From a virus: 48,539 nucleotides of DNA. The translations under genes and the position numbers were made by a program. Every line of letters begins with the position of its first letter. The stretch's first letter is position 1. Location: IMG/VR virus record IMGVR_UViG_3300024520_000006, positions 1 to 48,539 of that record; one strand, 5' to 3'. Positions 4,714-24,633 of this stretch are shown here, piece by piece. The notes below the pieces were generated by a model. It did no database searches. It was not told where the DNA came from and saw only the letters and a program-made list of their open reading frames with translations.

Positions 4714-5829
4714 ATGGCTGTCCAGACTGGCCGGAGAGGAACCTATGATTCAACCGTAGGTACCCGCTTCGACATCGAGGACCTAGTCTATATGATTTCC
4801 CCCTTCGATGTGCCTTTCTTGGGAACCTATGGAACGGATCGTGGATCTGTCCTTGGTTCTGAGGAAACAGTTCAGACAAAGGTCGAATGGCTTGAGGATG
4901 AATTGGTTCCAGGTAGTGACGCTCTGAGTGGTGCGGCTGTTACAGCCGATGTCTATATCACCGTTGCTAACCGGACCTACTTCAAAGCGAACGACCTCAT
5001 CCGTATTGATGATGAGTATTTGAGGGTTACTGGAGACGGTACCACAGCAGATACGCTCCTTGTTGAGCGTTCCTGGGGTGCCCCTGTAGCAGCCTCTCAC
5101 GCTGATGCATCAACGGTCCTGATTTTGGGTACGCTACCTGTGGAAGGTGATGATCCGGTTTCCGGTATCAATTTCACCCGAACACAGCCGTATAACATTA
5201 CCCAGATTTATCAGGACGAGGTTGAGGTTACTCGTACTGAGGAAAAGAAAGGCAAGTATGGTGTCAACTCTGAAGCCGCTTATCAAATCGCTAAGAGGCT
5301 GAAAGAGGGCGCCATCAAGCTCGAAAGGAACATCATCCTGGGTACCAGGAATGATGATAGCTCTGCCAAGAGGCGTTCGATGGGTGGATTGGATTACTAC
5401 GTCAGTACTAATACCGATTCAACCACTACCATAATGGCTGCGGATAAACTGCTCGACCAGATGCAGTCCGTATTCAATACTGGTGGTAACACCGATCTCC
5501 TCGCTCTCGGTGGTACACAGAAGCGGAAGATTTCCGCATGGGATTCCTCTGACATCAGGTTGTCCAGGGACGAAAATGTCCGTGGCGCTGTTGTTGATTG
5601 GTTCGACTCTGACTTTGGAAGGATCTATATGGTCCTTAATCGTTGGGTGCCGCTCCGGTTCGCATTCGGCCTGGAACGTCAGTACATCTCCATGCAGTGG
5701 TTTGACCGCTTCTTCACTGAGGCCCTTGCTAAGACGGGTGACCGTCAGCAGTGGCAGGTGGTGCATGAAGTCAGCATGAAGGTCAAGAACGAGAAGGCAC
5801 ACTTCAAGTTCACGGCTCTCGAAGCATAG
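4714..5829 (+). CDS. Major capsid protein (HK97-fold; resembles the DUF5309/SU10-type family, from memory)
   Basis: 371 aa, SD GAAGGAGA upstream, follows the scaffold-like gene. Has the insertion LIRIDDEYLRVTGDGTTADTLLVERSWGAPVAASH that I associate with this capsid family, and is followed by a strong hairpin. Confidence 0.8.
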   Translation: MAVQTGRRGTYDSTVGTRFDIEDLVYMISPFDVPFLGTYGTDRGSVLGSEETVQTKVEWLEDELVPGSDALSGAAVTADVYITVANRTYFKANDLIRIDDEYLRVTGDGTTADTLLVERSWGAPVAASHADASTVLILGTLPVEGDDPVSGINFTRTQPYNITQIYQDEVEVTRTEEKKGKYGVNSEAAYQIAKRLKEGAIKLERNIILGTRNDDSSAKRRSMGGLDYYVSTNTDSTTTIMAADKLLDQMQSVFNTGGNTDLLALGGTQKRKISAWDSSDIRLSRDENVRGAVVDWFDSDFGRIYMVLNRWVPLRFAFGLERQYISMQWFDRFFTEALAKTGDRQQWQVVHEVSMKVKNEKAHFKFTALEA

Positions 5830-6119: not shown

Positions 6120-6869
6120 ATGGGTAACAAGTCTAAAAGAGGGCCAAAGCCTGTCACTGTTTCAATAGGGTATTGTCACCCTGAGCATGTGTCGGCTTTT
6201 TTTCATGACTCCCTTATAGGTTTGTTACAAAGAGAATGGCACAGAGTACAAGGAATTATCTCTGTGCTATCAGGCCCTAAAGTGGATATGGCTCGTAACC
6301 ATATCATGAAGCGATGGCTTAAAAGTACCGATACTGATTACCTCCTGATGGTAGACACTGACATGGTATTACCGCCTGATACCCTTGATATTCTTATTAA
6401 CCATGATAAAGACATAGTAGGCGGTCTATGTTTTTCTGGCATGGGTTCGGGTGGTTCAGTTAAGCCTGTCATCAAAGTAATAGAGGAAAACGAAATACTA
6501 GTCCTATGGGATTACCCTACTGATACCCTTGTCCAAGTAGCCGCAACAGGAGCAGCATGTGTCCTTATCAAGAGGAAAGTAGCAGAGGGTGTATGGCAAG
6601 CGAGAGGCAAGGACCACCCTATGCCTTGGTTTGCTCACGGTATGCACAAGAACGTCCAGATAGGCGAAGATGTAGCCTTCTGTTTAACCGCTGGCAAAGT
6701 CGGATACGAGGTATGGGTAGATACTGGCCTCATTATTCCACACGTTAAGCCAAGGCTAATAGCTGATGGGGACTACGTTATCTCTCTATCAAGGGAAGAC
6801 CATCCTAACTATGAGTATCGAGAAAAGGTACCAATATATCAGGAGATCCTAGATGGCAACTCTGACTAG
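6120..6869 (+). CDS. GT-A fold (family-2-like) glycosyltransferase
   Basis: DYLLMVDTDMVLPPD (DxD), DIVGG, GAACVLIKRKV, PWF....GEDVAFC: the order and spacing are typical of GT2 enzymes. Confidence 0.75.
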   Translation: MGNKSKRGPKPVTVSIGYCHPEHVSAFFHDSLIGLLQREWHRVQGIISVLSGPKVDMARNHIMKRWLKSTDTDYLLMVDTDMVLPPDTLDILINHDKDIVGGLCFSGMGSGGSVKPVIKVIEENEILVLWDYPTDTLVQVAATGAACVLIKRKVAEGVWQARGKDHPMPWFAHGMHKNVQIGEDVAFCLTAGKVGYEVWVDTGLIIPHVKPRLIADGDYVISLSREDHPNYEYREKVPIYQEILDGNSD

Positions 6870-12723: not shown

Positions 12724-13547
12724 TTACCTTTCTCGGCTCGTTCTATTTTCCTCACCAACTTGGGGATGGTGACATTGTAGGCATGACGAGGAAGCCACGG
12801 TTTGCTTGCGCCTAGTGGTGTTACTCGTTCGCCAACCAATAGGTCAGGGTCTCTGAAAGTTACCCCATACCTTATTGTGTCGGATTCTTCATCTATCTCC
12901 TCTCCTTCCTCATCTTCCAAAAATGTTCTTGCCAGAATGCTGGGCTTTTCGGTCACAAAACTGCGGATCGAAGGCGAGAAATCTGGTACCTTATCAACAC
13001 CAAGTTTCTCAGCTTGTTCCTCATTCAATGTGCGTTCCTGAGCGGTATAGATAAGGTGCATGTTTCTAGTCTGACACACTTCTTCCAATTCCTCCATGAA
13101 CTCAGTAATGAGAGTACCCAGCCTACCCCACGTTCGTTGATCTGTGGTACCAGGTGACCGTGCTTCATCCCTAGCTTCCTCATCTTTGTTGATATACCTG
13201 AGGCCTACTCTGACAAGGGCAGACATGGTATCTACTACCACAGTTTGTCTGTCGTGATCCGCATACCTCAGGTAGTGGATGAAGTCATAGGTGTCTTTCC
13301 AACGTAGTGGACGATACGTCCCATCTTTATTACGTGGAAATACCTGAAGGTCCTTCTGTTTACGGACAGTCATTGTGCCCTTCTCTGCCTCAAGTAAAAT
13401 AACTTTAGGGCCCGTACATGCAAGGGCTGTCTTACCTGACTTCACTCTACCCCATACCATCATATAGATAAGAGAGGGTGATGTGGTAACTGGTACTATT
13501 CTCGATTCAACCAGTTTGATTCTGCGTTCCCGTTTACTGTCTGCCAA
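12720..13547 (-). CDS. Sak4-like RecA-fold ATPase (AAA_24-type recombination protein)
   Basis: Walker A in MVWGRVKSGKTALA, Walker-B-like TVVVDTMS; ATGA overlap with the downstream gene; classic ATPase/SSB/exonuclease neighbourhood. Confidence 0.7.
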   Translation of the reverse strand: MADSKRERRIKLVESRIVPVTTSPSLIYMMVWGRVKSGKTALACTGPKVILLEAEKGTMTVRKQKDLQVFPRNKDGTYRPLRWKDTYDFIHYLRYADHDRQTVVVDTMSALVRVGLRYINKDEEARDEARSPGTTDQRTWGRLGTLITEFMEELEEVCQTRNMHLIYTAQERTLNEEQAEKLGVDKVPDFSPSIRSFVTEKPSILARTFLEDEEGEEIDEESDTIRYGVTFRDPDLLVGERVTPLGASKPWLPRHAYNVTIPKLVRKIERAEKGK

Positions 13548-14547
13548 GTTTCCTCCCTTCCAGGTAAGTACTCGGCTGATACTTTGTTCTCCTCATAAAC
13601 TTTCCGTCTCCTCCCATGAGTTCTACCATACAAAGTTCGTGGTAATCACAATCCCAATCACAGGACATAATCATGGTACGAGTCCAAGGGTCCTCATCAT
13701 TATCTTCCATGAAGTCATACCAAGCGGCCATCTCTTGCATGGTATAGTCAAGCTCCTCGACCAGACGATTCTCTATTTCCTTGGGCTTAACTATCTTGGT
13801 CCTCTTGAAATACTGATTGGAACCCTTGAGCGTACGGAGTTGTGTCTTCCATCTGTCTGGTATGTTTGGCCAGTCTTCCGAATAGTATTCTTTGAGGAAG
13901 GTAGCAAGGGTGTAGTAGTCAGTGTCCATACGCCGCTTACTGATTGACCCATCCTGATTGATTGTCGGTATCGTTGGTGGCTTCGTCTTGATGTAGTTGT
14001 ACCCAAATGTATCTACCTCTAAGCCTGCGATACGCAAACCCCAAGGGTATAACCCAGATTGTAGATCCTGCATCCTGAACTCAGCGGATGGCACAGACTT
14101 CGTGGTCTTATGGTCCCACACTATTGTTTGCTTTAGTACCTTGTCATAAACTATGAGATCAGGCTTGAAAGAAAACTCATGGCCATTAGGGTGCTCGACT
14201 ATGAAGGTCTCCTCAACATGGAGAATCTCCCAGTCCTTGTCATCGTCCTTCCAGTGATAGAGGTAGGCTTTAATCATCCGCTCTACTTCACTGGGTAGAT
14301 CCCCGTAGAACTCTCGTTCCTCAAGTAGAAGGGTATTGAATTTCTTAGTCAAAGCCTTATGGGCTATTCGCCAATCCCTACCCATGTAATGGTACTGGAG
14401 ACATTCGTGCATCCATGTACCTCTACGAAGTGGCAAGGATGGGAGTCTTGTTTCCAAACCTTCGACCATACTGTAATAGTACTGCCGCTTACATCGCCTA
14501 AACTTCTTAGCCGACGATGGAGATATTTTGATGAGGGTTTCTTCCAT
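13534..14547 (-). CDS. Cas4/RecB-family PD-(D/E)xK exonuclease with Fe-S cysteines
   Basis: FKPDLIVYD...IVWDHKTTK nuclease core; N-terminal Cys (RCKRQYYY) plus C-terminal CDWDCDYHELC, as in Cas4/AddB-type clusters. Confidence 0.75.
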   Translation of the reverse strand: MEETLIKISPSSAKKFRRCKRQYYYSMVEGLETRLPSLPLRRGTWMHECLQYHYMGRDWRIAHKALTKKFNTLLLEEREFYGDLPSEVERMIKAYLYHWKDDDKDWEILHVEETFIVEHPNGHEFSFKPDLIVYDKVLKQTIVWDHKTTKSVPSAEFRMQDLQSGLYPWGLRIAGLEVDTFGYNYIKTKPPTIPTINQDGSISKRRMDTDYYTLATFLKEYYSEDWPNIPDRWKTQLRTLKGSNQYFKRTKIVKPKEIENRLVEELDYTMQEMAAWYDFMEDNDEDPWTRTMIMSCDWDCDYHELCMVELMGGDGKFMRRTKYQPSTYLEGRKLGRQ

Positions 14548-14606: not shown

Positions 14607-17030
14607 TTACAGTTCAATGGCCCCTTCAGACCAGAACTTTCCAACCTTGACATCAGCCTTAATCGGCACGGTCAATAGGCATTCAAACTCTTTTTCCAGG
14701 GGAAGGTTTTCCATCACCTCTACAATACGAGGAATGACATCATCCAGTGCTTCTTCCCGAATCTCAAAGAGGATAGAGTCATGAACCGTCCCAATTACTT
14801 TAGCCACAGATTCATCAAGCTCACCGTTTAGTTGGACCATGGACATCAACATCATATCCGATGCCATAGACTGGACTGGTGAATTGATAGCCTGACGTTC
14901 AGCCTCCCCTCGGATTCCTTGTTCCTTAGAGTTGATGTCCCACAGATGTCTCTTCCTACCTATGGGTGACATAACGTACTGCCTGCGTTGGGCGGCTCTC
15001 CTCTGTCTACCATGCCATGGGTACAAACCTCTAAAGTTCTGGAAGAATGAGTCCCGATAATTCTTTGCCTCTGCATCGGTAACATCTATACCGTAGTTGG
15101 TCTTGGAATACTCTACGAATTTCCGGTAACCCATTCCATATACGAACCCGAAGTTGACAGCCTTGGCCTTCTTTCTAATCTCCTGTGTAATTTCAGGTCG
15201 AGAGAGGCCAGTCGTTGCCATAGCTGTTTCGGTATGGATGTCCCGACCGAGGTGGTAGGCTCGTAGCATTGTTTTATCCTGGGAAACGTGAGCCACAATT
15301 CTGAGTTCGACTTGGGAATAATCCGCCTCAACAATTCGCCATCCCCTACGACCTCCAATGATGCCTCGTATAAAGGTGTCTCTAGGGACTTGTTGCAGGT
15401 TAGGGTTAGAGGATGAGAGTCTACCTGTAACTGTATGGAACGGCTTGAAGGTAGAGTGTAAACGACCTCTTCCGTCCATTCGCTGAGCCCAGTTCTCAAA
15501 GTAACGAGAACGGTATCCATTCCATTTTCTATATTCGAGGATGGCATCTATCACTCCACTTTCATCTAGATCATTGAGCCTGACTAGTACGTCCTCTGCT
15601 GTAGAGGGTTGGCCAGACGGTGTTGCTTTCAAAACAGGGAACTCCATCTTGCTATACAGAAGGCGTCCCAATTGCTGTGGACTGTTCGGATTGAATGGTC
15701 TCATTTCTGAAGGAACAAACTCTTGGATCAGTTCAACCTGTTCCTCAATGTTTTTCTCGGTCTTGGCTCGGCGTGCATTGAACTTCTCTCTGTGGATAGG
15801 TACGCCCCGTATTTCTACATCAGTTAAGGTATTCACAGCGGGCATCAGTAGCTTACGAAAGAGCCTGTTTGATAGAGGCTCAGCCTTCAGTTTCTTTTCA
15901 AGCTTGAGGCCTAATCTCAAGGTGTAATCTGCATCCTGCCCACCATACTCAACCAAATCATTCAATGGGGTAAGGTTAGTATGTTTCTTATTGAGGAGGT
16001 CTTTGTAAGCAGGGGCACCAAGATATACCTGCGATGCAAACCCAAGATCCTTACGGTTGTTTTCATCCAGTGCATAGATAGCACCCATGGTATCGAAGTA
16101 TTGCCGCACGTTAATACCCATAGCATGGAACCATTCTTCATCGAACTTCCCATTGTGCATGTACCATTTACCAGACTCAATGTAAGGTTTGAGAAGGTCT
16201 ATCACCTTCTGTGGGTTTTTCCATCGAGAACCTTCAGTCCACAGTGGTATGACATAGGCTCGACCAGGGGTAACCGATATGTTAATTGCGGATAGCTTGG
16301 CAGTTGAATCCCAAGGATAGAGACCACCGAACTCATGTTCCGACCAAGTCTCAAGGTCTATTGCTCCTCGCTTTGCCTTCTTGAGGTCTGCAATCAGGGC
16401 GCCAAGAGTTTCCTTGTTATTGACCGCTATACTACGGGTAGCTGGAATACCTTCTTCGTCATACACTAGCCTCTTGAATACTAGCAGGGCCCCCCTAAAG
16501 GCGTCTAGGTATCTTGGATTACGGAGGACGGCGGCTGGCTGTAGAGCAGCCACGAAGGTAGCACCTCCGTATTCATAGCTTGTACCGTTACGGCTCGTAA
16601 TCCCTTTGAGGCCCAGTGTCGCCTTGAGACCGCTGTTTCCAAGAGCGAGTCCAAACTTTGGCCTGATTCGTTGAACCTCTCTCTGGAGATAGAGATCCGA
16701 ACAGACTCGTATTTCCCTGTCCGTAGGTGAGCGGTAATCTTCAGGTCTACATTTAACCGCTCCGGATATGAAGAAGTTGGTTTTGTCAAGGCCTATCCTT
16801 TCTAGTTCTTCCCATAGGAAGCTTGATTCTACGATCGACGGGTCAGTAGCCACAACCATAAGACGTCCATGAGAGTCGTCTTTAGTAGGGATGGTTATGG
16901 GTGAACATATCTCATAAGCCTCCTCATGGAGAGGACACTCAGAACACTCGGGATCCTCTAACTTTGTTAGTGTGGATCTCAGCTTCCCAAAGGAGGTCTT
17001 TGCCTTCTTGTTTTCGGTACTCGTTCCCAT
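14607..17030 (-). CDS. Family-A DNA polymerase with 3'-5' exonuclease and an N-terminal degenerate family-4 UDG-like domain
   Basis: Pol motifs ADYSQVELRIVAH (A), RKKAKAVNFGFVYGMG (B), TVHDSILFE (C); exo motif AIDLETWS. N-terminal ~190 aa align to family-4 UDG (CSECPL...AVKCRP...VC...QPAAVLRNP). Strong SD GGGAGGTGA precedes the ATG. Confidence 0.9.
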   Translation of the reverse strand: MGTSTENKKAKTSFGKLRSTLTKLEDPECSECPLHEEAYEICSPITIPTKDDSHGRLMVVATDPSIVESSFLWEELERIGLDKTNFFISGAVKCRPEDYRSPTDREIRVCSDLYLQREVQRIRPKFGLALGNSGLKATLGLKGITSRNGTSYEYGGATFVAALQPAAVLRNPRYLDAFRGALLVFKRLVYDEEGIPATRSIAVNNKETLGALIADLKKAKRGAIDLETWSEHEFGGLYPWDSTAKLSAINISVTPGRAYVIPLWTEGSRWKNPQKVIDLLKPYIESGKWYMHNGKFDEEWFHAMGINVRQYFDTMGAIYALDENNRKDLGFASQVYLGAPAYKDLLNKKHTNLTPLNDLVEYGGQDADYTLRLGLKLEKKLKAEPLSNRLFRKLLMPAVNTLTDVEIRGVPIHREKFNARRAKTEKNIEEQVELIQEFVPSEMRPFNPNSPQQLGRLLYSKMEFPVLKATPSGQPSTAEDVLVRLNDLDESGVIDAILEYRKWNGYRSRYFENWAQRMDGRGRLHSTFKPFHTVTGRLSSSNPNLQQVPRDTFIRGIIGGRRGWRIVEADYSQVELRIVAHVSQDKTMLRAYHLGRDIHTETAMATTGLSRPEITQEIRKKAKAVNFGFVYGMGYRKFVEYSKTNYGIDVTDAEAKNYRDSFFQNFRGLYPWHGRQRRAAQRRQYVMSPIGRKRHLWDINSKEQGIRGEAERQAINSPVQSMASDMMLMSMVQLNGELDESVAKVIGTVHDSILFEIREEALDDVIPRIVEVMENLPLEKEFECLLTVPIKADVKVGKFWSEGAIEL

Positions 17031-17355
17031 AGTTCACCTCCCTTATTCCTGCATTGATAACTAATTGGGCACAGGAAATACAAGGTAAGTGAGTGGTATA
17101 TAAGACCGAACCATTGGTAGATATTCCATGCTTGGCTGCGAACACAATGGCGTTTGCCTCAGCATGTACTGACCTATCACAAGCTGTAAGGTCATCGTGT
17201 GTGCAATGAAGTAACCCAGCAGGTGCCCCATTGTATCCTGTGGAAACGATTCTCTTGTCCTGTACCAGTACGGCACCTACATGCAGGCGTTTACAGGTAG
17301 AGTACATCGCCACCACTTTAGCTATATCTAAATAGGCAATGTCATCCATGCTCAT
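16939..17355 (-). CDS. dCMP (deoxycytidylate) deaminase
   Basis: HAEANAI ... PCISCA zinc motifs with typical spacing. The ORF-track start at 17382 is a TTG, so the first ATG (MSMDD) at 17355 is preferred. The 3' end overlaps the polymerase start by 92 nt. Confidence 0.85.
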   Translation of the reverse strand: MSMDDIAYLDIAKVVAMYSTCKRLHVGAVLVQDKRIVSTGYNGAPAGLLHCTHDDLTACDRSVHAEANAIVFAAKHGISTNGSVLYTTHLPCISCAQLVINAGIREVNYGNEYRKQEGKDLLWEAEIHTNKVRGSRVF

Positions 17356-18091
17356 TTTGTAACCTTTCAATTTCGGGCTCAAAGATATGGAGGGAAGATA
17401 TGTGCATAACGAGTGGTCCCATATCCACGTTCATCATGTGTGCCAAGTGTTGTTGAAGGCGGGCGGTCATATACACATCGTCCCTGAAATAGCGGAACCA
17501 ATCACATGACCTCATGTAGTACACAACCTTGAGTTTGCCATCCCTAAGAAGGAAGTGATATCCAAGAGTACATGGCACTCTCTCACCCAGTACATCAGCG
17601 GCATACAAATCCTCAGGAAACCACACTGGTAGATATGCTTGGCGTGTATGGGGTCTCATCATAAGGAGAGACTTGAGGTTATCTAGTGTGCCATAATCAA
17701 ATCGAATACCTGCCCTGTGAGGAGGATAATATCTCTCCATATAGGTATGGCTAAATAGCCCTCCACCCTTGTGTTCCTCTACTCCCTGTTCATACCAAGG
17801 CCAGTTCTTGTACTGTTCACCAGGGTTCAAAGGGTTACCAGACATACGTTCTTGGAAGTGATCCTCTGCCCATGGGAGATTTGGCTTAATGGAAAATTGG
17901 AGTTGGTCTACAGTACTGGGTACTCTGTTCCATTTGAAAGAAACATCTTCCAACTCAAAGGTCTTAGTCATAGGTAAATCAGGATCACGGAATGACTGCC
18001 ACTCACCTACATCTACAACCTCACCATGTTCTATGAAGTCAAGGCCTATATTCTCAAGTATTCTACCGAACCAGTCTTCCCTATAGTACAT
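17342..18091 (-). CDS. ThyA-superfamily pyrimidine 5-modifying enzyme, dCMP-hydroxymethylase-like (Asp at the base-selecting position)
   Basis: RQAYLPVWFPEDL, nucleophile VPCTLGY, LLRDGKLKVVYYMRSCDWFRYFRDD, SSLHIF. Cys-to-Asp spacing is 31 residues, as in T4 gp42 (C148-D179) and E. coli ThyA (C146-N177), both recalled from memory. Confidence 0.75.
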   Translation of the reverse strand: MYYREDWFGRILENIGLDFIEHGEVVDVGEWQSFRDPDLPMTKTFELEDVSFKWNRVPSTVDQLQFSIKPNLPWAEDHFQERMSGNPLNPGEQYKNWPWYEQGVEEHKGGGLFSHTYMERYYPPHRAGIRFDYGTLDNLKSLLMMRPHTRQAYLPVWFPEDLYAADVLGERVPCTLGYHFLLRDGKLKVVYYMRSCDWFRYFRDDVYMTARLQQHLAHMMNVDMGPLVMHISSLHIFEPEIERLQNEHG

Positions 18092-18650
18092 TCTTTACCC
18101 TTCCGTGTACTCCCAAGAAACTACCCCTTGGGTTATCAAACCACCACCCTTGTAAGTTGTGGCGCTTAATGAATCTGGTTGTATCACTATCCTCTATTGA
18201 GTCATGGAATGTATCGTGTACCAGTAACATAGAATGAGGTGGCGAGTGATTGAACCACAGACTCAACTCTTCCTTCCTACGTGAAGGTTCTGAATCCAGA
18301 ATTACAAAGTCCGCTGTCACCATATCTAAGTAACCCGGTTGGCCTAACTCATAATTAAACTGTGGAGATGGAGGAACATTCTCCACCATATCTAACCATC
18401 TCTCCTGATGGTCAAAGGTTATTAGTCTCTGAGTATCTTTCATAACACTTAGGACCCTACGAGTTACATACCCCTGACCTAGTCCTGTCTCTATGATAGT
18501 GGCTGTATCATGGAGGGATTTTGTTACATACTTAGCCACATTACAGAACTCCAACTCAGGGCTCATGATATTCCAAGCATTGAATCCTGTCCACTTACCT
18601 GAGAACTCCACTTCATCTACCAATGGGGCCTCGTTAACCCAAGGATTCAT
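18081..18650 (-). CDS. Class-I SAM-dependent methyltransferase-fold protein, substrate unknown
   Basis: Motif I IIETGLGQGYVT, acidic post-beta-2 TFDHQE, ADFVILDSEP; resembles small-molecule O-methyltransferase-type (Methyltransf_24-like) proteins; overlaps both neighbours. Confidence 0.6.
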   Translation of the reverse strand: MNPWVNEAPLVDEVEFSGKWTGFNAWNIMSPELEFCNVAKYVTKSLHDTATIIETGLGQGYVTRRVLSVMKDTQRLITFDHQERWLDMVENVPPSPQFNYELGQPGYLDMVTADFVILDSEPSRRKEELSLWFNHSPPHSMLLVHDTFHDSIEDSDTTRFIKRHNLQGWWFDNPRGSFLGVHGRVKNVL

Positions 18651-19479
18651 AGTAACCTTCTACCTTCCCAAAGTTTAGCTCTCCCACTGGAGTAGAAGGA
18701 ACGAAAATCCCCTGTTGATATTCCTCATAGCGTCTGCGGATTCGTTTGAATGGCCCGTACAGTTCTTCCTCTACTGTCTTACCATCTCGTTCAAACTCCA
18801 GAACTTTTTGCCACCATCGGTCAATGGATTTCCAAGTAGGAGTAACGGGCTCACACAAAGTCAGTTCTTCCATCAAATCTGGCTGAGTATAAAGGTAAGG
18901 GAGACATTTAAAACTATGGAGTTGCATTACGTCCAAGTGCCACTGGAGACGAATACGCTCGGGCGAACCTTCACTGATTTCCCTTGCGAGAACATGGACA
19001 AGAGCCATGTCCAAGCCAAGCATGTAGGCATTGTAACTAACCCTAGAGTGTATGGTGAGCGTAGGTATGACCTTGTCATTTCTATCTGATCCTCGGAAGG
19101 TGGCTGCCAACAAACAATTACCCCACTTATGCTTTCGGTCGGAGCGGGTAACGTGCTTGAAGTGGACGTTTGTGATAACTCCGTTCCTACCCTTATCTTC
19201 GAGGATGATTCGTGACCGCTTGATAAACTCGGCAGTTTCATATCCGTCGAGGTATTCCCTTGTAAGTCTCGTCCAGCGGGATGGGTTAAGCCATACTTCC
19301 TGGAGGTCAAATTCGTATGCCATTGAGTCAGCCTCCAAAATGACATTGTTAAGGTTTGTACCGATACCCAGTTCAAGGTCTACCTCCTCTTTATCTAAAT
19401 GCCAGCGGGTAACATCATGCCACAGTTGAGTTTGATCTTTGGCTCGGAGTACTTTAAAGCTCATGGCTAGACCACTCAT
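18634..19479 (-). CDS. ~281-aa uncharacterised enzyme, possibly a second, highly divergent ThyA-fold protein
   Basis: KWGNCLLAATF ... TLTIHSRVSYNAYMLGLDMALVHVLA can be laid over ThyA APCHAFFQF ... [27 protein letters not shown] by eye. Start is uncertain (ATGs at 19491, 19479, 19464); 19479 has GGTGGTGA upstream. Confidence 0.45.
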   Translation of the reverse strand: MSGLAMSFKVLRAKDQTQLWHDVTRWHLDKEEVDLELGIGTNLNNVILEADSMAYEFDLQEVWLNPSRWTRLTREYLDGYETAEFIKRSRIILEDKGRNGVITNVHFKHVTRSDRKHKWGNCLLAATFRGSDRNDKVIPTLTIHSRVSYNAYMLGLDMALVHVLAREISEGSPERIRLQWHLDVMQLHSFKCLPYLYTQPDLMEELTLCEPVTPTWKSIDRWWQKVLEFERDGKTVEEELYGPFKRIRRRYEEYQQGIFVPSTPVGELNFGKVEGYYESLG

Positions 19480-19876
19480 GGTCACCACCATGGTTAAGGT
19501 CTAGGGTGCAGTACTGATAAGGCCCATAGCCTCTGAAATTTCCACAAGCAAATGGCTTTCCAGTCTCTGGATACTTGATCCAGTCCCTGTCCTTTACCTC
19601 TCCCCATGCAGACTCAAGGCAACCCGATAATTGATAGCCATTAGTGTTGCAGTAACTGGCAAGGTAGATCATGATGTCACCAATTGCGTCTACTGCTGCT
19701 GCTCGGTGCTCCTGTGAGGTGCCTCTGATCTGTTGCTGTGCTTTAAGGTGTGCGTGTGCTAGCTCTCCGACTTCTTCAGTCAACCCTAATAGCGCATCGT
19801 GCGCCTGTTGATTGGGGAAATTATGACTCAACCACTCCAGATGCTCATTCTGAAATTCATGTAGGTCATGCATCAT
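19454..19876 (-). CDS. mazG: MazG-like all-alpha nucleoside triphosphate pyrophosphohydrolase
   Basis: LTEEVGELAHA and AVDAIGDIMIYL metal-binding helices, about 140 aa; overlaps both neighbours. Confidence 0.8.
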   Translation of the reverse strand: MMHDLHEFQNEHLEWLSHNFPNQQAHDALLGLTEEVGELAHAHLKAQQQIRGTSQEHRAAAVDAIGDIMIYLASYCNTNGYQLSGCLESAWGEVKDRDWIKYPETGKPFACGNFRGYGPYQYCTLDLNHGGDHEWSSHEL

Positions 19877-20510
19877 TGATGATCTCCTTACCTTTGTCTA
19901 TGTAGTATTGGTCAGGCTGGTCTACTGGAAACAAACCTTTTGGCTGGAAAAGTGATTCAATCCTGTGGGCTACATACCTCACCCGAGATTCACCATAATC
20001 CCAGAATCCCATTTGATATCCGTCGTACTTCATGAGGAGAGAGACCATGTTGTAGGTCGCAGCTACCTTCTCCCTATGCTGATAGATGTGGTTACCTCTG
20101 GGATCAGTATTACTACCACGATATGGCTTATTGGTGGAAGTCATAATAGTAAGAGTATCAGGATGCTTTAACCTGTGGAGAGATTGGAGAGGGTTACGAA
20201 GGCGAGTGAATCCTCGTATCACAGGACCATATATAAGCTCGGATATTTCAGGTGTGCGATCCAGTATATAAATCTTCCCACTCCTATGGGACCGCTCTAT
20301 ATGTTGGGCATTCCATTCGTTCCAAGTTTCATCCCATTCCTTCATCCTACCTGATGGTGATTTGACGTACTGGCATAGGTCGGGACCCATCCACCCAGCC
20401 AAAGCATAGGCAAGGGTTGTCTTTCCACTGGAGTCGGGACCTTCTAGGATAATTGTTGCCACGTTCTGCTCACTTTCTGAGATTCGTAGTGTAATATACC
20501 ACTGTTTCAT
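19866..20510 (-). CDS. P-loop (d)NMP kinase, thymidylate-kinase-like
   Basis: Walker A ILEGPDSSGKTT, LDRTPEISELIYG resembles the Tmk DR(Y/F)..S motif; ATGA overlap with the SNF2 gene. Confidence 0.7.
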   Translation of the reverse strand: MKQWYITLRISESEQNVATIILEGPDSSGKTTLAYALAGWMGPDLCQYVKSPSGRMKEWDETWNEWNAQHIERSHRSGKIYILDRTPEISELIYGPVIRGFTRLRNPLQSLHRLKHPDTLTIMTSTNKPYRGSNTDPRGNHIYQHREKVAATYNMVSLLMKYDGYQMGFWDYGESRVRYVAHRIESLFQPKGLFPVDQPDQYYIDKGKEIINDA

Positions 20511-21949
20511 CTGTCAACTACGAGGAGTTCCGGATCATCCATAACTAATTTCTCCAGATTCTTCTTCTGACGGAGAGCTTTGAATACCAAGCCATCTATC
20601 GTGTTGACCATATGCAGGTGGTAGAATGTTACTGGTGTTTTTTGTCCTGCTCTATCGAGTCGTCCCCTTGATTGGACATAGTGATCCCAGCTATAGTCGG
20701 TTGAGTAGTAGATGGCATGTGAACAGGCATGTTGTAATCCGTCGAGTGCTTCACCCGCAGCGATCTGGATGACAAGGATTCTGGTCGCATCTTGCTTCCT
20801 AAAACTATCAACCGCTTCTTTCCTCCCTTTAGCCGTGATGCCACCTCTAATTTGAACCAAGCCATAGCGGCTAAGTCCATCTCTGATTTGGTTAAGTTCC
20901 CATTTGAATCTGGCAAAAATAATCACCTTCTCTTGTGCTTCCATAAGGTCATCTACTAAACTGAATAATACGGCTAACTTATCTCTCTGGAAATCAACGA
21001 CCTCACTCAACTCATCGTGGATGGATCCGCTTGTCATCTCTTGTAGTCGAAGGAGTTTGGTCAGTACAATTGGGGCGTCTATCAGGTGACGTTTCCATAC
21101 TACCATCCCATCTTCTGCAAAGGAATCGTATGCTGACCGAGCCGACTTGTTCATAACCACAGGGATGATCTCGTCGGTTACAGGAGGGAGGTCAAGGCAA
21201 TCTCTCTTCCGTGCCGTAGATATCCATGGACGATATCGTTCTTGAAGGTCTTCCACGTTTTGGTAACCTCGAAGTTCGTATCCTGTACGCCCACCCCACA
21301 TACCGTAGCGGTAACGGAATCGGGTCCAAGACATAGCATCACCTTTGACTGGGTCACGCCATATCTTCGGATCAATAACCTTGAGTTGACTATAAAGGTC
21401 CAGATAGTTCTTACTGACAGGCGTCCCCGAAAGGAGGCAAACGTGCCTAGCTCGGGATCCCAAACGGTGAGTAGCTTTGGACCTCTTAGCTGTGGCGGAC
21501 TTAACTTTCTGGCTTTCGTCGAGGATGAGTAGGTCGGCATCATATTCCTCCAGTGCTTGCATGATGGCCCAGTCTTTGTCTCTCTTGATTGCGGCTTCGT
21601 AATTGAGGATAATAAACCGAAGCGGAGAACTTCGATCTCCATACCACTCAATTTCTTCTCGGATTTGATCTGCCTTTTCTATTACTTTTCCCTGTGGTAT
21701 CAGGGTACTTTGATGTACCCCAAGATGTTTTTCCATTTGTGCTGGCCATACTTGCATAGCATTGATGGGGCACAGAACAAGTACCTTGAGACCACCCTCC
21801 TTTAGATACAAGGCAGCGGCGAAGTCAAGGGCTGTTTTCGTCTTGCCCGTTCCAGGCTCCCAAAACAACGCTCCACTGCCCTGTTTCCAAAGCCTCTTAA
21901 GACCCCTCCGCTGGTGCTTAAAAGGCTTGGACTTAAATCGGTACTTCAC
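20507..21949 (-). CDS. SNF2-family (superfamily 2) helicase/translocase
   Basis: Motif I WEPGTGKT, motif II LILDESQKVK, motif VI QSRGRLDRAGQ. Confidence 0.85.
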   Translation of the reverse strand: MKYRFKSKPFKHQRRGLKRLWKQGSGALFWEPGTGKTKTALDFAAALYLKEGGLKVLVLCPINAMQVWPAQMEKHLGVHQSTLIPQGKVIEKADQIREEIEWYGDRSSPLRFIILNYEAAIKRDKDWAIMQALEEYDADLLILDESQKVKSATAKRSKATHRLGSRARHVCLLSGTPVSKNYLDLYSQLKVIDPKIWRDPVKGDAMSWTRFRYRYGMWGGRTGYELRGYQNVEDLQERYRPWISTARKRDCLDLPPVTDEIIPVVMNKSARSAYDSFAEDGMVVWKRHLIDAPIVLTKLLRLQEMTSGSIHDELSEVVDFQRDKLAVLFSLVDDLMEAQEKVIIFARFKWELNQIRDGLSRYGLVQIRGGITAKGRKEAVDSFRKQDATRILVIQIAAGEALDGLQHACSHAIYYSTDYSWDHYVQSRGRLDRAGQKTPVTFYHLHMVNTIDGLVFKALRQKKNLEKLVMDDPELLVVDR

Positions 21950-22704: not shown

Positions 22705-24633
22705 TTACCCTTCTTGTTCAATATCAGGGGCTCGCTCCGCAAGATAAAACCTCTTTGCCTTTCCTATAGTTCGTACGGCGATTGTTCCATCATTCAATAG
22801 TGGGGCCATGTCTGCCCTTATCTTCTTTTGCCCGACACCCATAGATGCCTGGAGATTACGGTATCCGAGCCCATCAGGCCCAGCTTCACCCAGAATGGCA
22901 AGGATCTTATTGTCTGTACCGACAACTCCCGACGCTTGCCATTCATACCCTGATTCTCCAACGTCACCCATATTGAGGATAAAACCTGTCGGGGGAGGAG
23001 ATAGACGCTCACGGAATTCCCGCTCCACGACCACCTGGATACCTGATTCACTAACCTTAGCTTCGAGATATAAGGCTGCCTCAAGCCATCCGTATATAGT
23101 TGTGGAACCCAAGAGCTTGATCCCTCCAGCGCCTCTACCTTTTCGATCAGAACCTCCTTTGCCCCAATGGTGTACGACCACCACTGCACAGTTGTAGAGG
23201 TTCCTAACACGAAGAAGCCATGAGAGGATGGGACGCATTTCCTTAGCATTATTTTCATCGGCACCCCCTATCATGAGGTATAGCGGATCGAACACGATGA
23301 GTTTGGCACCCTCTTTCTGGATGACCTCCTCTATCGCATCTCGATCCTGTGGATTACTCATATCGAAACCAAAATCGTTATAGAAGATAAGAGGTATAGA
23401 CGGCGGGAACTGTACCACAATCTCATCTTTATTACCCTGAGAAACTTTGCCTGAGTGTAACCCACGTTGGTAAGTCATTTTCCATAGTCTGTCTCGTAAC
23501 AAGGACATAGAGTTCTCTTGCTGGACTACAATGACAGGGCCCACCCCTTTAGGGTTAACCTCAAATTGCCCCATGAATGGGGAGTTGGAAGACACACTGA
23601 TGGCTAGGTCTAGAGATATGAGGCTCTTATAAGATTTGGGCAAACCAGCAATAATGCCATGGGATCCAAGTGTCCACCAGTCATTAACAAGCCATGCTGG
23701 TTCAGTAACTTTGGAACCAAGGAGATCGGCATAGGAGATAAGTCTTGGCCGCAAACGCACAAGGCCTGTTTGCTGATCGACTTCCCTCTCGGTGCCAGTA
23801 TGGAGATGTGCTTTCTGGACTTCACGCCAGAGGTAATCATCAGCGTTTCGCCGTTCCTTAAACTTATTCCAGACAGATCCTCTGACAACGAGGAAGACTT
23901 CTTCTGGTTCGAGTCCGGCTTCGAGGAGGCGACATTCGAGTTCCCACAGTCGGTCACTTCTGTCTCCTTCGGCTTGCTCTCGCTTCTCTCCAAGTAGTTC
24001 ACGTCCTCGTACATCAAGCCTATCCCAGATACGTCTTGTAATGCTTTCTGCCGATTCGGCCGGGAGGATAAGAGATTGGACCAGTGGATCGAGGTTATGC
24101 GACTCCACTCCTTTGACGAATTCCTCAATTTCTGCGACGGTAAAGGTCTGCTCATTGTCCCAAAGTTTCCTTACTCTCTTGGGGGTGGGGTATTTGTAAT
24201 TGTAGGTACCTGGTATACGGAGGACTTTAGTAAGATGCCATCCACCCTTGTCCGACCCGGTGGCATAGGTGAGTCGTCTATTGAGATCCTCAAACTTCTT
24301 AGGAGATACTGGTCGTTTGAGTTCCCATAACCCTTGGTATCTGCCGGGGCTTGTTTGTATTGCGATAGTGGGCTTAAGGTCAAGGGATCTAGGGTCAACT
24401 GCATCAAGGTCACTGTATAACCATCTGAGTCTTCCAGTGTTGCTTTTAAGACGACGGGGGCTTTGGAAGACATTCGGGCAGTAATAACTGTCCGAGTCGG
24501 CGGGGTGATCGGGTATCTTCTCTTCCGTAGGCCATGTATACGCATCAGGTTCTATCCATTTGTCTGTTTTGTAGGGCGTGAATACGTACCCAGTTTGAGT
24601 ACCCCATACCCTTCGGAGGAAAGAGTTGGACAT
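22705..24633 (-). CDS. Bifunctional primase-polymerase / RepA-type (AAA_25-like) replicative helicase
   Basis: N-terminal LYSDLD...IAIQTSPGRYQGLWEL...VLRIPGTYNYK (prim-pol/RepB'-like). C-terminal Walker A AGLPKSYKS, Walker B LIVFDPLY, VVVVHHWGKGG. Confidence 0.8.
   Translation of the reverse strand: MSNSFLRRVWGTQTGYVFTPYKTDKWIEPDAYTWPTEEKIPDHPADSDSYYCPNVFQSPRRLKSNTGRLRWLYSDLDAVDPRSLDLKPTIAIQTSPGRYQGLWELKRPVSPKKFEDLNRRLTYATGSDKGGWHLTKVLRIPGTYNYKYPTPKRVRKLWDNEQTFTVAEIEEFVKGVESHNLDPLVQSLILPAESAESITRRIWDRLDVRGRELLGEKREQAEGDRSDRLWELECRLLEAGLEPEEVFLVVRGSVWNKFKERRNADDYLWREVQKAHLHTGTEREVDQQTGLVRLRPRLISYADLLGSKVTEPAWLVNDWWTLGSHGIIAGLPKSYKSLISLDLAISVSSNSPFMGQFEVNPKGVGPVIVVQQENSMSLLRDRLWKMTYQRGLHSGKVSQGNKDEIVVQFPPSIPLIFYNDFGFDMSNPQDRDAIEEVIQKEGAKLIVFDPLYLMIGGADENNAKEMRPILSWLLRVRNLYNCAVVVVHHWGKGGSDRKGRGAGGIKLLGSTTIYGWLEAALYLEAKVSESGIQVVVEREFRERLSPPPTGFILNMGDVGESGYEWQASGVVGTDNKILAILGEAGPDGLGYRNLQASMGVGQKKIRADMAPLLNDGTIAVRTIGKAKRFYLAERAPDIEQEG

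Follow-up and report, generated by a model that had tools for sequence, protein, structure and literature searches.

Gene content of the nucleotide module

The window, which is the whole 48,539 nt stretch of viral DNA that was analysed, contains on its minus strand a run of genes for nucleotide metabolism that terminates with the gene for a DNA polymerase I (Table 1). Two of these genes, designated here X and OMT, lie between a ThyA-like gene (THYL) and a MazG-like gene and each overlaps its neighbors, as an earlier note on this DNA had described and as the ORF coordinates confirm: the end of the MazG gene overlaps the start of X (19479 or 19491), X overlaps OMT by 17 nt, and OMT overlaps THYL by 11 nt. 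The longest ORF for X starts at 19491, but an internal ATG at 19479, with GGTGGTGA just 5′ of it, would lead to a product of 281 aa, and this is the start chosen in public gene calls (P0001, 100% identical to X). The peptides quoted before from the two products are also found in them, with IIETGLGQGYVT as residues 52–63 and ADFVILDSEP as residues 114–123 of OMT, and KWGNCLLAATF and TLTIHSRVSYNAYMLGLDMALVHVLA in the 281-aa form of X.

Table 1. Genes and codons discussed in the text, with their positions in the window.
Feature	Position (nt)	Strand	Description and supporting matches
DNA polymerase I	14607..17030	-	N-terminal UDG-superfamily domain; PF00476 (2.9e-97), PF01612 (7.9e-16), PF03167 (2.3e-12)
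dCMP deaminase	16939..17382	-	147 aa, TTG start; PF00383 (1.8e-23), MafB19-deam (7.7e-17), phrog_174 (8e-50)
THYL, short ThyA-like protein	17342..18091	-	249 aa; Asp at the Asn177 position; PF00303 (1.6e-10)
OMT, O-methyltransferase-like protein	18081..18650	-	189 aa, ATG start; PF13578, AlphaFold2/Foldseek
X, divergent ThyA-superfamily protein	18634..19491	-	285-aa ORF, ATG start; likely start at 19479 (281 aa)
X, putative specificity codon Asp157	19011-19009	-	
X, putative catalytic codon Cys122	19116-19114	-	
MazG-like nucleotide pyrophosphohydrolase	19454..19876	-	140 aa; phrog_715 (1.9e-11)
P-loop thymidylate-kinase-like dNMP kinase	19866..20510	-	214 aa; phrog_761, thymidylate kinase (6.8e-13); TIGR00041 (weak)
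GT-A-like protein	6120-6869		DxD motif; immediately after the major head gene

In related phages, the position of the MazG gene is occupied by genes annotated as dUTPase, MazG or NTP-PPase, and that of the kinase by genes annotated as thymidylate or polynucleotide kinase. The locus appears to encode together a T4-like set of genes for dC replacement (dCTPase, a dCMP C5-modifying TS homolog, dNMP kinase and dCMP deaminase), activities that are assigned from family membership only.

X and its partner THYL

X and OMT are both genuine genes rather than ORFs that arose by chance. Homologs of X amounted to 92 at E ≤ 1e-3 in a set of 5.8 billion proteins and, among representatives, there were 301 clusters at 50% identity; an alignment of 70 distinct sequences, 26–100% identical, retained 22 positions with at least 90% identity. 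THYL is located directly downstream of X in all 67 IMG/VR loci that reach past X and, reciprocally, an X-type gene precedes THYL in 67 of 73 THYL loci (48 X, 6 X2, 4 X3 and 9 X4). The pair also occurs in phages of Gordonia, Streptomyces, Microbacterium and Mycobacterium, where gp47 and gp46 from phage Muddy correspond to X and THYL, and phages of proteobacteria contain a homologous variant of X in the same slot. X is thus a core gene, the conserved upstream partner of THYL, and not an add-on: the earlier proposal of X as an extra tailoring enzyme of this phage does not hold, because the X-THYL pair is found in hundreds of phages that lack OMT. Six THYL loci remain in which THYL has the same Arg-Gln motif (see below) and nothing of the X type lies within 3.5 kb; this counts against taking a strict dependence between both proteins, or the supply by X of a missing arginine, as established. 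Likewise, there were no X-THYL fusions among the 150 best representatives of X, the longest of which is 371 aa.

X did not match any Pfam or NCBIfam model at E ≤ 0.1, and neither the X2 proteins nor Muddy gp47 matched PF00303 or the NCBIfam ThyA models at E ≤ 1; X did match phrog_13667, of unknown function (1.4e-31). The AlphaFold2 model of X (mean pLDDT 94.2) was compared with the PDB using Foldseek, and all 34 matches at E ≤ 1e-3 were TS-fold enzymes (TM 0.45–0.56), the best one being the phage dCMP hydroxylase AfhB (1.9e-6), followed by MilA, TS and the T4 dCH (gp42). The weak ThyA-like assignment made previously for the 281-aa protein was therefore right at the level of the fold, and no unrelated fold was returned from the PDB at this threshold. 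In BFVD, for which a few rows of the table were nameless, the best matches were uncharacterised proteins, including the X2 protein from PMBT14 (7.8e-9), and those with informative names were viral proteins of the TS or gp42 type. Counting against our preferred reading, the direct comparison of X with ThyA by hhalign gave E-values of 0.01–0.08, which are not significant by themselves; the Pfam and NCBIfam models give no match, and the sequence link of X to the ThyA superfamily runs only through X2, which is connected to X with a probability of 93.6% (E 2e-7) and to THYL with an E-value of 1.3e-3. As judged from the modeled structure and this bridge, X is a very divergent, unannotated branch of the thymidylate synthase/dCMP hydroxymethylase superfamily.

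The conserved positions of X include four residues, C122, R146, D157 and H188, each kept in at least 99% of the 70 sequences, and Cys122 is invariant in all of them (70/70) and present in the X2, X3 and X4 variants. Several profile-profile alignments, with weak E-values, placed X on ThyA in the same register, with Cys122, Arg146, Asp157 and His188 as the counterparts of Cys146, Arg166, Asn177 and His207; the respective spacings of +24, +11 and +31 in X compare with +20, +11 and +30 for the enzyme from E. coli. The register of the overlay that had been done by eye was thus correct, as two independent hhalign runs, with weak E-values, paired both Cys122 with Cys146 and Asp157 with Asn177. The Asp at the specificity position predicts a cytosine rather than a uracil substrate, in agreement with the cytosine preference established for Asp at this residue by the N177D work that PMC13326640 cites. 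One point against our preferred reading is that the Arg126/Arg127 pair is missing from X, where hhalign aligns N99 and G100 with these positions. In X, the folate ligand Asp169 is replaced by an invariant Tyr149, and Val stands at the position of Ser167. With its active-site residues predicted in this way, X is most likely a catalytically equipped member of the TS superfamily.

THYL has its best PDB match by sequence to the CMP hydroxymethylase MilA (4e-10) and is a candidate hydroxymethylase. Among 75 homologs of THYL, residues C146, R166, H207 and R126 were kept, as was D169 in 74 of them, and N177 was replaced by Asp and R127 by Gln in every sequence (75/75); the Arg126/Arg127 pair of ThyA is consequently an invariant Arg-Gln. 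Positions L172, G173 and F176 were mostly changed to Arg, His and Asp.

The O-methyltransferase-like gene at the X-THYL junction

The OMT product was suggested before to have a SAM-methyltransferase fold, and a class I fold of this kind is supported by the Foldseek comparison of its AlphaFold2 model (mean pLDDT 92.6), whose top PDB matches were cation-dependent O-methyltransferases: SafC (7.7e-10), CCoAOMT, COMT and TrmR, with E-values from 1e-10 to 1e-8. OMT itself scored 26.1 bits with Pfam Methyltransf_24 (PF13578), just below the gathering cut-off of 26.3, and some of its homologs were above it (27.6 bits for that from L100; matches are listed for P0093, P0094 and P0107). The 18 homologs share 19 invariant columns, and the SAM motif takes the form of a motif I, E54-T-G-x-G-x-G60, with E54, G56, G58 and G60 invariant, and an acidic residue after beta-2 (D80, conserved as D/E). 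A weak hhalign alignment with rat COMT (E 0.0078), which covered only motif I and beta-2, superimposed motif I and put D80 on E90. The candidate metal ligands are D119 and H145-D146, all three being invariant; D119 and D146 are presumably at the strand ends that bind the metal in COMT, where we placed them by eye against the motifs of this class. The D-x-x-K motif lacks its catalytic Lys (D119-S-E-P), and the position of the Asn metal ligand varies among T, C and A. OMT is probably a Mg2+-dependent O-methyltransferase with predicted binding of SAM.

The distribution of OMT differs from that of X. None of the 70 related IMG/VR loci contains OMT, not even L008 and L009, whose X products are 77–79% identical to that of the window, and the order X-OMT-THYL could be confirmed only in the lineage of the window, in L084 and L196, and in one contig from SRR31656008 (36–53% identity for OMT and 73–86% for X). 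This slot is thus filled by OMT in no more than a few close relatives. In another relative, L004, OMT localizes to the early region, outside of the nucleotide module, and in other phages the X-THYL junction contains genes for HNH and LAGLIDADG endonucleases, UDG-like proteins and small DNA-binding proteins. OMT is most likely a sporadic accessory gene inserted at this junction in one small lineage. In contrast to this reading, OMT is translationally coupled to both neighbors and has retained its slot while identity dropped to 36–40%; this persistence and coupling are as compatible with participation in the pathway as with a passenger. Its substrate could be a sugar or glycan or, possibly, a C5 hydroxyl or hydroxymethyl group of a modified base.

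The first of these options is that OMT acts as an O-methyltransferase on a sugar or glycan, has nothing to do with nucleotides and landed by chance in an insertion hotspot. It is the strongest of the alternatives that we considered, although less likely than not. Such an enzyme might cap a glycan on a virion protein, synthesized by the GT-A-like protein of the phage, or modify a surface glycan of the host. Distant homologs of OMT are fused to GT2 or WsaF rhamnosyltransferase domains (L086, L088, L095, L100), and others adjoin GT2 and GT1 genes (L005) or an NTP_transf_3 gene (L079). Nevertheless, 11 kb separate the GT-A gene from OMT and the two are on opposite strands, a relative bearing this glycosyltransferase (L102 and L016, from the same contig) had no OMT in the parts examined, and in at least four lineages OMT persists in tight coupling within the nucleotide operon. 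Additionally, its structural neighbors are catechol-type and not sugar O-methyltransferases.

The second option, advanced in the earlier note, is that OMT tailors the nucleotide pathway by O-methylating the 5-hydroxymethyl or 5-hydroxy group of the THYL/X product or of the DNA base, leading to a 5-methoxymethyl- or 5-methoxy-pyrimidine. This is chemically possible, and is consistent with the gene overlaps and with the conserved order described above, with structural neighbors that methylate a hydroxyl beside a second oxygen, including TrmR (5-hydroxyuridine in tRNA), with a flavin-dependent dCMP 5-hydroxylase as the nearest solved structure to X, and with the existence of ThyA homologs that make 5-hydroxy-dCMP (PMC13326640). 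We nevertheless found it unsupported and regard it as unlikely. Besides the absence of OMT from the 70 related IMG/VR loci, its early location in L004 and the homing endonucleases and unrelated small genes that occupy the junction elsewhere, all of the family-invariant residues, including those from the N-terminal segment, are shared with homologs that are fused to GT2/WsaF domains or adjacent to glycosyltransferase or nucleotidyltransferase genes, which points to a common acceptor of the sugar type. X also carries Tyr at the Asp169 position, where the 5-hydroxy-dCMP synthases have Asn. A full-text literature search retrieved no paper using the terms 5-methoxycytosine, 5-methoxydeoxycytidine or methoxymethylcytosine, so that the compound would be new and equally without precedent.

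Proposed pathway and comparison with known systems

The reading that we prefer, with a probability of about 0.6, is that X is a divergent catalytic enzyme of the TS superfamily that acts with THYL on C5 of dCMP, with OMT as an accessory. X would bind a cytosine-type nucleoside monophosphate, Cys122 would attack C6 and C5 would thereby be changed, in conjunction with THYL, both proteins forming one hetero-oligomer or catalysing successive steps. Together with the genes around them, they would constitute a T4-like pre-replicative pathway: MazG would convert dCTP to dCMP, X and THYL would convert dCMP to a 5-substituted dCMP that would be phosphorylated by the TMP-kinase-like enzyme, and the modified nucleotide would be incorporated by PolA, with the deaminase feeding the dT pool. 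The replacement of folate positions in X (Asp169 by Tyr149) and in THYL (Leu172/Gly173/Phe176 by Arg/His/Asp) suggests that the group added at C5, or the cofactor used, may be something other than the classical methyl or hydroxymethyl from CH2-THF.

More tentatively, and with the odds clearly against it, X and THYL could make up a two-component TS-fold system, perhaps by pairing in a heterodimer that has one active site, and would either carry out on dCMP a C5 reaction beyond any single TS homolog or use a non-folate cofactor. If this were true, hundreds of siphophages, with the therapeutic phage Muddy among them, would contain an undescribed DNA base, and OMT would cap it in the lineage of the window, yielding 5-methoxy- or 5-methoxymethyl-cytosine.

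Another possibility is that supplying dTTP is the sole function of the module, in a phage with unmodified DNA, and that THYL, with X as its helper subunit, produces 5-methyl-dCMP that the deaminase would convert to dT nucleotides, as proposed for Xp12-like phages. Five of seven ThyA(D177) homologs linked to a deaminase make 5mdCMP, and the linked deaminases prefer 5mC, bypassing dUMP (bioRxiv 10.1101/2024.12.05.627091); the kinase is TMP-kinase-like; and in Muddy and the Gordonia CT-cluster phages, which are well studied, the module has been read as "thymine synthesis" (PMC10353413). In agreement, none of the cultured phages with the X-THYL pair, Muddy and the Gordonia phages included, was described as having modified DNA in the papers that our literature search retrieved, a point that also counts against our preferred reading. 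Conversely, PaMx74, a 5mC phage like those tested in that bioRxiv study, contains a canonical ThyA that differs only by N177D, together with DHFR and no X, while THYL differs at R127, H147, L172, G173 and F176 and DHFR is missing from the module in the window. A bona fide ThyA or ThyX, which would be redundant under this reading, is additionally encoded by Huwbert and by two Manatee Spring phages, and around 10 of 67 loci had no deaminase match within the stretch examined; together with Asp177 in both proteins, this indicates that the module is not simply for dTMP synthesis. Moreover, the co-localization of ThyA(D177), deaminase, PRA-PH and PolA genes is reported to be enriched in, and to mark, metavirome contigs with modified cytosine (bioRxiv 10.1101/2024.12.05.627091), which ties this gene set independently to modified C. 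A dTTP-only role is accordingly doubtful. Lastly, X could be a pseudoenzyme, a subunit with the TS fold but no catalysis of its own whose role would be to regulate or stabilise THYL or to poison the ThyA dimer of the host, as might suit its far faster evolution (X, X2, X3 and X4 are barely alignable, whereas THYL is 38–46% identical in the same phages), the loss of the Arg126/Arg127 pair and of the folate ligand, and the frequent 4 nt overlap of X and THYL, common among subunits of one complex, but this is very improbable, because the residues that stay invariant despite the divergence are the catalytic Cys, the Arg, the Asp at Arg+11 and the His, which a scaffold would not need.

OMT shares with COMT, CCoAOMT, SafC and TrmR (PF01596/PF13578 clan) a predicted Rossmann fold, the Gly-rich motif I and the acid after beta-2 and, as placed by eye, it may also have an Asp at both positions that bind Mg2+ in COMT. 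It differs from the COMT class in the absent catalytic Lys, in a third ligand, Asn, that is not conserved even though His145 is invariant, in a family-specific N-terminal segment (W4, E7, W26-N27, S30-P31-E32, C36) and in its size (189 aa versus ~220 aa). Its distant homologs fused to WsaF-like and GT2 domains, found in soil contigs, may resemble the WsaE/WsaF-type methyl/rhamnosyl-transferases for glycan chains in S-layer or O-antigen synthesis and keep all of the OMT-invariant residues; OMT, however, is free-standing, is part of a nucleotide operon and is only ~30–38% identical to the fused forms. Regarding thymidine hypermodification, no aGPT-Pplase or HMUDK domain was found in X or in the P-loop kinase (Pfam, E ≤ 0.1).

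The nearest structural matches to X are the flavin-dependent 5-hydroxy-dCMP synthases (AfhB from HY126, PDB 9iqu/9iqc; gp48 from RB69; gp80 from DLP3), short TS-fold proteins acting on dCMP that illustrate that this fold is capable of non-folate chemistry (PMC13326640). Any connection of X to flavin enzymes would be through the structural proximity of its model to 9iqu/9iqc. The signature of these synthases is an Asn at the Asp169 position (D169N; PMC13326640), and it occurs neither in X nor in THYL, which have Tyr149 and Asp (74/75), respectively; additionally, the synthases match PF00303-type sequences and X matches none, and the module of X includes no arabinose or glycosyl-transfer genes. 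The 5-methyl-dC module from Xp12 and PaMx74 shares its gene set with that of the window, namely an Asp177 ThyA homolog, a gene of the dCMP-deaminase family, an NTP pyrophosphohydrolase and PolA. However, PaMx74 relies on one canonical ThyA-like enzyme and DHFR, with no X-type gene, and THYL represents a short subfamily of its own, in which the folate pocket is remodelled.

Finally, X shares the predicted fold of ThyA, T4 gp42 and MilA (PF00303 superfamily): the Cys opens a core strand, the Arg ends the next strand, the His is on the following strand, and the specificity residue lies at Arg+11, where the central helix begins, being Asp as in gp42 and MilA. Unlike these enzymes, X has no Pfam match, has lost the Arg126/Arg127 pair and shows the changes Asp169 to Tyr and Ser167 to Val; its first 100 residues are not alignable, and its last 90 make up a helical region that differs from that of these enzymes. 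Whereas ThyA, gp42 and MilA stand alone, X is nearly always encoded beside a second TS-like gene.

The nucleotide module of the window phage

The window corresponds to a public contig of 48,539 bp, is probably a complete phage genome and carries terminase, major head protein and tail genes as well as a replication block; ENA samples ERZ27250004, ERZ27250134 and ERZ27250054 also contain this phage. DNA searches of the module for near and distant relatives among cultured phages retrieved a single match, a 134-nt stretch of the deaminase gene; the window phage has no close cultured relative. A WhiB-like protein (PF02467) encoded by a close relative (locus L004, positions 1559-1930) is a hint that the host may be an actinobacterium, even though the G+C content of the window is only 47%. 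The nucleotide and replication genes form one minus-strand operon, and the genes for X, a divergent protein of the thymidylate synthase (TS) fold, and for a 189-aa methyltransferase-like protein are located where the earlier note had placed them, with the overlaps and peptides that it described. Public gene calls start X at position 19479, which yields a product of 281 aa; the residue numbering of X follows this form.

Features of the nucleotide module and of the head region in the window
Feature	Position (nt)	Strand
Major head gene	4714-5829	
GT-A-like glycosyltransferase	6120-6869	+
PD-(D/E)XK exonuclease	13534-14547	-
PolA with UDG and exonuclease domains	14607-17030	-
dCMP deaminase	16939-17382	-
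ThyA-like protein THYL	17342-18091	-
189-aa methyltransferase-like protein	18081-18650	-
X	18634-19491	-
MazG-like pyrophosphohydrolase	19454-19876	-
TMP-kinase-like P-loop protein	19866-20510	-
SNF2 helicase	20507-21949	-
Primase/helicase	22705-24633	-

The DNA polymerase I carries an N-terminal domain of the UDG superfamily (PF03167, 2.3e-12), whose first catalytic motif looks degenerate (VATDPS versus GE(A/N)PG in family-4 UDGs). The dCMP deaminase gene, which starts with TTG and shares 41 nt with THYL and 92 nt with the PolA ORF, was left uncalled on public contigs from this phage (L193 and L194). The GT-A-like gene immediately follows that for the major head protein, encodes a DxD motif (DTD) and matches phrog_34859 (2.3e-12) and, weakly, Anp1; its product could glycosylate virion proteins and might have some link to the glycan-associated methyltransferase family described below.

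Fold, catalytic residues and relatives of X

Pfam and NCBIfam yielded no matches to X, whose sole library match was phrog_13667 (1.4e-31), labeled as of unknown function; all 85 phage records with X annotate it as a hypothetical protein, and we found no paper assigning it. A Foldseek comparison of an AlphaFold2 model, built from 47 homologs (mean pLDDT 94.2, pTM 0.92), against the PDB produced 34 matches with E ≤ 1e-3, all 34 of them TS-fold enzymes; at the level of this model, the weak ThyA-like assignment of the earlier note was borne out. The top matches were the dCMP hydroxylase AfhB from phage HY126 (9iqu, E 1.9e-6, TM 0.45/0.56) and its FAD/dCMP complex (9iqc), followed by MilA, many TS entries and the T4 dCMP hydroxymethylase, while the BFVD ranking listed uncharacterised viral proteins, then a protein from phage PMBT14 (X2, see below; 7.8e-9) and then viral TS and gp42 proteins.

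A set of 70 distinct X sequences, 26-100% identical, shows conservation of 90% or more at 22 positions, among them C122, S145, R146, Y149, Y152, D157, Q186, H188, and F190. In the model, C122 lies just before strand 123-129, R146 and H188 at the ends of strands 140-149 and 177-188, respectively, and D157 in the opening turn of helix 153-168. The order and spacing of these residues (+24, +11, and +31 from C122 onward) agree with those of C146, R166 (+20), N177 (+11), and H207 (+30) in Escherichia coli ThyA, these equivalences being derived from spacing, secondary-structure order and hhalign rather than from superposition. Family-versus-family hhalign of X, or of X plus X2, with THYL/ThyA gave weak E values (0.012 and 0.016) but exactly the register expected from spacing, and so the observation in the earlier note of an Asp where ThyA has Asn holds, with D157 in the register of N177. 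The X profile alone aligned wrong regions of E. coli ThyA and THYL (E 0.26 and 0.084, respectively), and a PDB profile search with X retrieved only a chance match; none of these direct sequence comparisons of X with ThyA reaches significance by itself.

Together, the modeled fold and the catalytic core place X as a predicted member of the ThyA/dCMP-hydroxymethylase superfamily, and it is likewise predicted to work as an enzyme of this type. Yet X lacks the partner Arg pair, with Asn99 and Gly100 at the positions of Arg126 and Arg127, has an invariant Tyr149 in place of the folate-binding Asp169, and is not recognized by the Pfam model of the superfamily. X is therefore best described as a previously unannotated, fast-evolving variant clade of the TS fold, which keeps the catalytic residues but lacks the folate ligands, and whose hallmark is that it pairs, in a seemingly obligate way, with another atypical TS homolog. 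When the X profile was run against 1.84 billion representatives, it recovered 301 clusters, with no visible bridge to annotated TS and, among the 150 best representatives, no fusion proteins. An alternative identification of X as aGPT-Pplase, with the P-loop protein as a 5-hmdU DNA kinase, was rejected in view of the lack of Pfam matches and the TS-like fold of X.

The slot upstream of THYL is filled in proteobacterial phages by X2, a protein of 256-279 aa found in Serratia phages Tlacuache, Opt-155, and Serbin, Pseudomonas phages PMBT14, Almagne, and Lebethron, Yersinia phage P744 and Brevundimonas phage Strzyga, as well as in two Manatee Spring viromes. Its motifs GfCMQ and YYRSTE..KFlADL contain the Cys, the Arg-Ser pair and an Asp at Arg+11. 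Using hhalign, X aligned to X2 with a probability of 93.6% (E 2e-7), Cys on Cys and Arg on Arg, and X2 aligned to THYL in the correct register (E 1.3e-3), while a Pfam scan of X2 proteins and of gp47 from Mycobacterium phage Muddy retrieved nothing at E ≤ 1. Two GenBank records already label X2 as 'pyrimidine hmase synthase'. Of the two further variants, both from IMG/VR, X3 aligns to X with an E value of 4e-9, and X4 shares only the motif and has a weak link to X2.

Pairing of X with THYL and the methyltransferase-like protein

Searches with X patterns recovered 70 IMG/VR loci, and in all 67 whose contig continues past X the next TS-type gene is THYL, followed by PolA, usually with the deaminase in between, and then by the exonuclease. 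This gene order also occurs in Gordonia phage Yarn, Streptomyces phage KimJongPhill, Microbacterium phage Huwbert and Muddy, where gp47 is X and gp46 is THYL. In the reverse survey, 560 IMG/VR stretches were found to encode THYL relatives; among the best 80 of these 560, 73 had enough upstream sequence, and 67 of the 73 contained an X-type gene upstream of THYL (48 X, 6 X2, 4 X3, and 9 X4), with no X-type gene within 3.5 kb in the other six. Among the records of cultured phages, around 100 contain a full-length THYL, 85 contain X, and 17 contain X2. X is a conserved partner of THYL.

In 75 sequences, THYL retains C146, R166, D169, H207, and R126, but N177 is always Asp and R127 always Gln, and Arg, His, and Asp mostly replace the residues that contact folate, L172, G173, and F176; additionally, THYL lacks the last 50 residues found at the C-terminus of ThyA. 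THYL proteins without an adjacent X also display Arg-Gln, not Arg-Arg, which speaks neither for nor against the idea of a heterodimer with Arg complementation.

Muddy is a therapeutic phage (NC_022054; L105:6022-7691) in which gp47 is annotated as hypothetical and gp46 as thymidylate synthase; gp45, annotated as hypothetical, is also a dCMP deaminase (PF00383, 2.5e-18), and dUTPase and thymidylate kinase genes lie upstream of the pair. Its relatives FF47, Maco2/6/7, and JacoRen57 also have X. One IMG/VR locus (L075:6890-8820, IMGVR_UViG_3300025626_000036) contains two tandem X genes before THYL (hmmsearch 2e-61 and 3e-45).

The Rossmann methyltransferase-like call made in the earlier note for the 189-aa protein agrees with its AF2 model (pLDDT 92.6), which has a seven-strand Rossmann layout, with Foldseek and with motif I. 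Its Pfam Methyltransf_24 score was 26.1 bits, slightly below the cut-off of 26.3. The top 50 Foldseek matches were cation-dependent O-methyltransferases, except for a few titled only 'O-methyltransferase' or 'putative', and included SafC (7.7e-10), CCoAOMT, bacterial COMTs, norbelladine OMT and the tRNA ho5U methyltransferase TrmR. A PDB search with the single sequence gave no matches, and the profile retrieved only weak motif-I matches to KsgA-type enzymes. An N-terminal block and residues E54-T-G-x-G-x-G60, T63-R-R65, D119-S120, R125, E128, H145-D146, and P174-R-G176 are invariant in the family, and hhalign against rat COMT aligned motif I and placed D80 on E90, which renders plausible both a pocket for SAM and metal binding by two Asp residues; the catalytic Lys of COMT is absent. 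The 189-aa protein is a newly found member of a known fold.

Its gene overlaps both X and THYL, and the same three-gene order recurs in loci L084 and L196 and in a contig from SRR31656008, in which identity of the 189-aa protein drops to 36-73% while that of X stays at 73-86%; all this speaks for a role in the pathway. Against such a role, the gene is absent from all 70 IMG/VR X loci, even those of relatives whose X is 77-79% identical. In L004, which has a near-identical replication block, the homolog is an early-region gene located upstream of the primase. The X/THYL junction is an insertion hotspot, occupied elsewhere by HNH or LAGLIDADG nucleases, zinc-finger-like peptides, a free UDG-like gene (L033, L043, and L044) or a recurrent small protein, DNA-binding-like by eye. 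In the L161-L179 group (e.g., L161:3011-3442), a gene for a 131-143-aa protein, staphylococcal-nuclease-like by eye only, separates the X4-type gene from THYL.

Distant homologs of the 189-aa protein keep all the invariant residues; some occur in fusion with a GT2 or WsaF rhamnosyltransferase domain, and others adjoin GT2/GT1, NTP-transferase, radical-SAM or other methyltransferase genes. Large fusion proteins with GT-A/GT2-like and WsaF-like rhamnosyltransferase domains were seen in soil metagenomes (L086:3-2882, L088:5469-6974, L095:2410-3693, L100:3871-5118). A sugar or glycan substrate can be proposed tentatively for the 189-aa protein, whereas a nucleotide or DNA substrate is unlikely, the GT-A-like gene of the window also counting against the latter; other substrates take up the remaining probability. 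The interpretation in the earlier note stands only in part: the TS fold of X and the Asp-for-Asn exchange hold, but the object of interest is the pair formed by X and THYL, not that of X and the methyltransferase.

Possible roles of X and THYL

Most pyrimidine modifications that phages introduce before DNA replication begin with the TS fold, its known products being 5-methyl-C, 5-hm-C, and 5-hm-U and, since 2025-26, also 5-hydroxy-C. X and THYL both keep the residues of covalent catalysis, and both have Asp where dUMP enzymes have Asn; according to Liu and Santi, as cited in PMC13326640, N177D switches ThyA to dCMP. Three observations argue for a purpose other than simply making dTMP. Huwbert encodes, besides X and THYL, a bona fide ThyA (L003:8161-8964) 65% identical to the E. 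coli enzyme, and two Manatee Spring phages carry ThyX (L107:1839-2495; L111:6450-7082) besides the X/X2 and THYL pair, which speaks against the pair acting as the thymidylate synthase in these phages; additionally, a deaminase match is absent from the fetched stretch in around 10 of 67 loci. A NEB preprint (10.1101/2024.12.05.627091) reports that the presence of ThyA(D177), deaminase, PRA-PH and PolA in a 3-kb stretch is a mark of metavirome contigs in which modified cytosine is enriched, and that five of seven tested ThyA homologs make 5-methyl-dCMP, without stating whether the THYL type is among them.

We infer a T4-like route, in which MazG would convert dCTP to dCMP, X and THYL would produce a 5-substituted dCMP, either as a heteromer or acting one after the other, and the module kinase, with an assumed host NDP kinase, would raise it to the triphosphate for incorporation by PolA, while the deaminase would feed the dT pool. 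In literature searches, no publication on X, on X2 or on DNA modification turned up for Muddy, PMBT14, Serbin, Yersinia phage P744 or the Gordonia CT phages, and none using the terms 5-methoxy- or methoxymethyl-cytosine.

Some of the carriers are available in culture and tractable, namely Muddy, Gordonia GTE2/Emalyn, Pseudomonas PMBT14, and Serratia Serbin, and the function is therefore directly testable by LC-MS and co-expression. If X and THYL make a new base, this would add further chemistry to the TS fold, explain the modified-cytosine signal of metaviromes for such a gene set, and affect defence evasion and sequencing of therapeutic mycobacteriophages; if they only make dTMP, in a dUMP-free manner, they would still constitute an unrecognised two-protein thymidylate pathway. 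The 189-aa methyltransferase is of lesser weight, being either a passenger or an infrequent tailoring step.

With their altered folate positions, X and THYL leave room for a non-classical chemistry, for which the flavin-dependent 5-hydroxy-dCMP synthases are a precedent, although their D169N signature is absent from both proteins. Phage PaMx74, with 5-methyl-C DNA, has a canonical ThyA changed only by N177D, together with DHFR and no X, and in this it differs from the phages with THYL.
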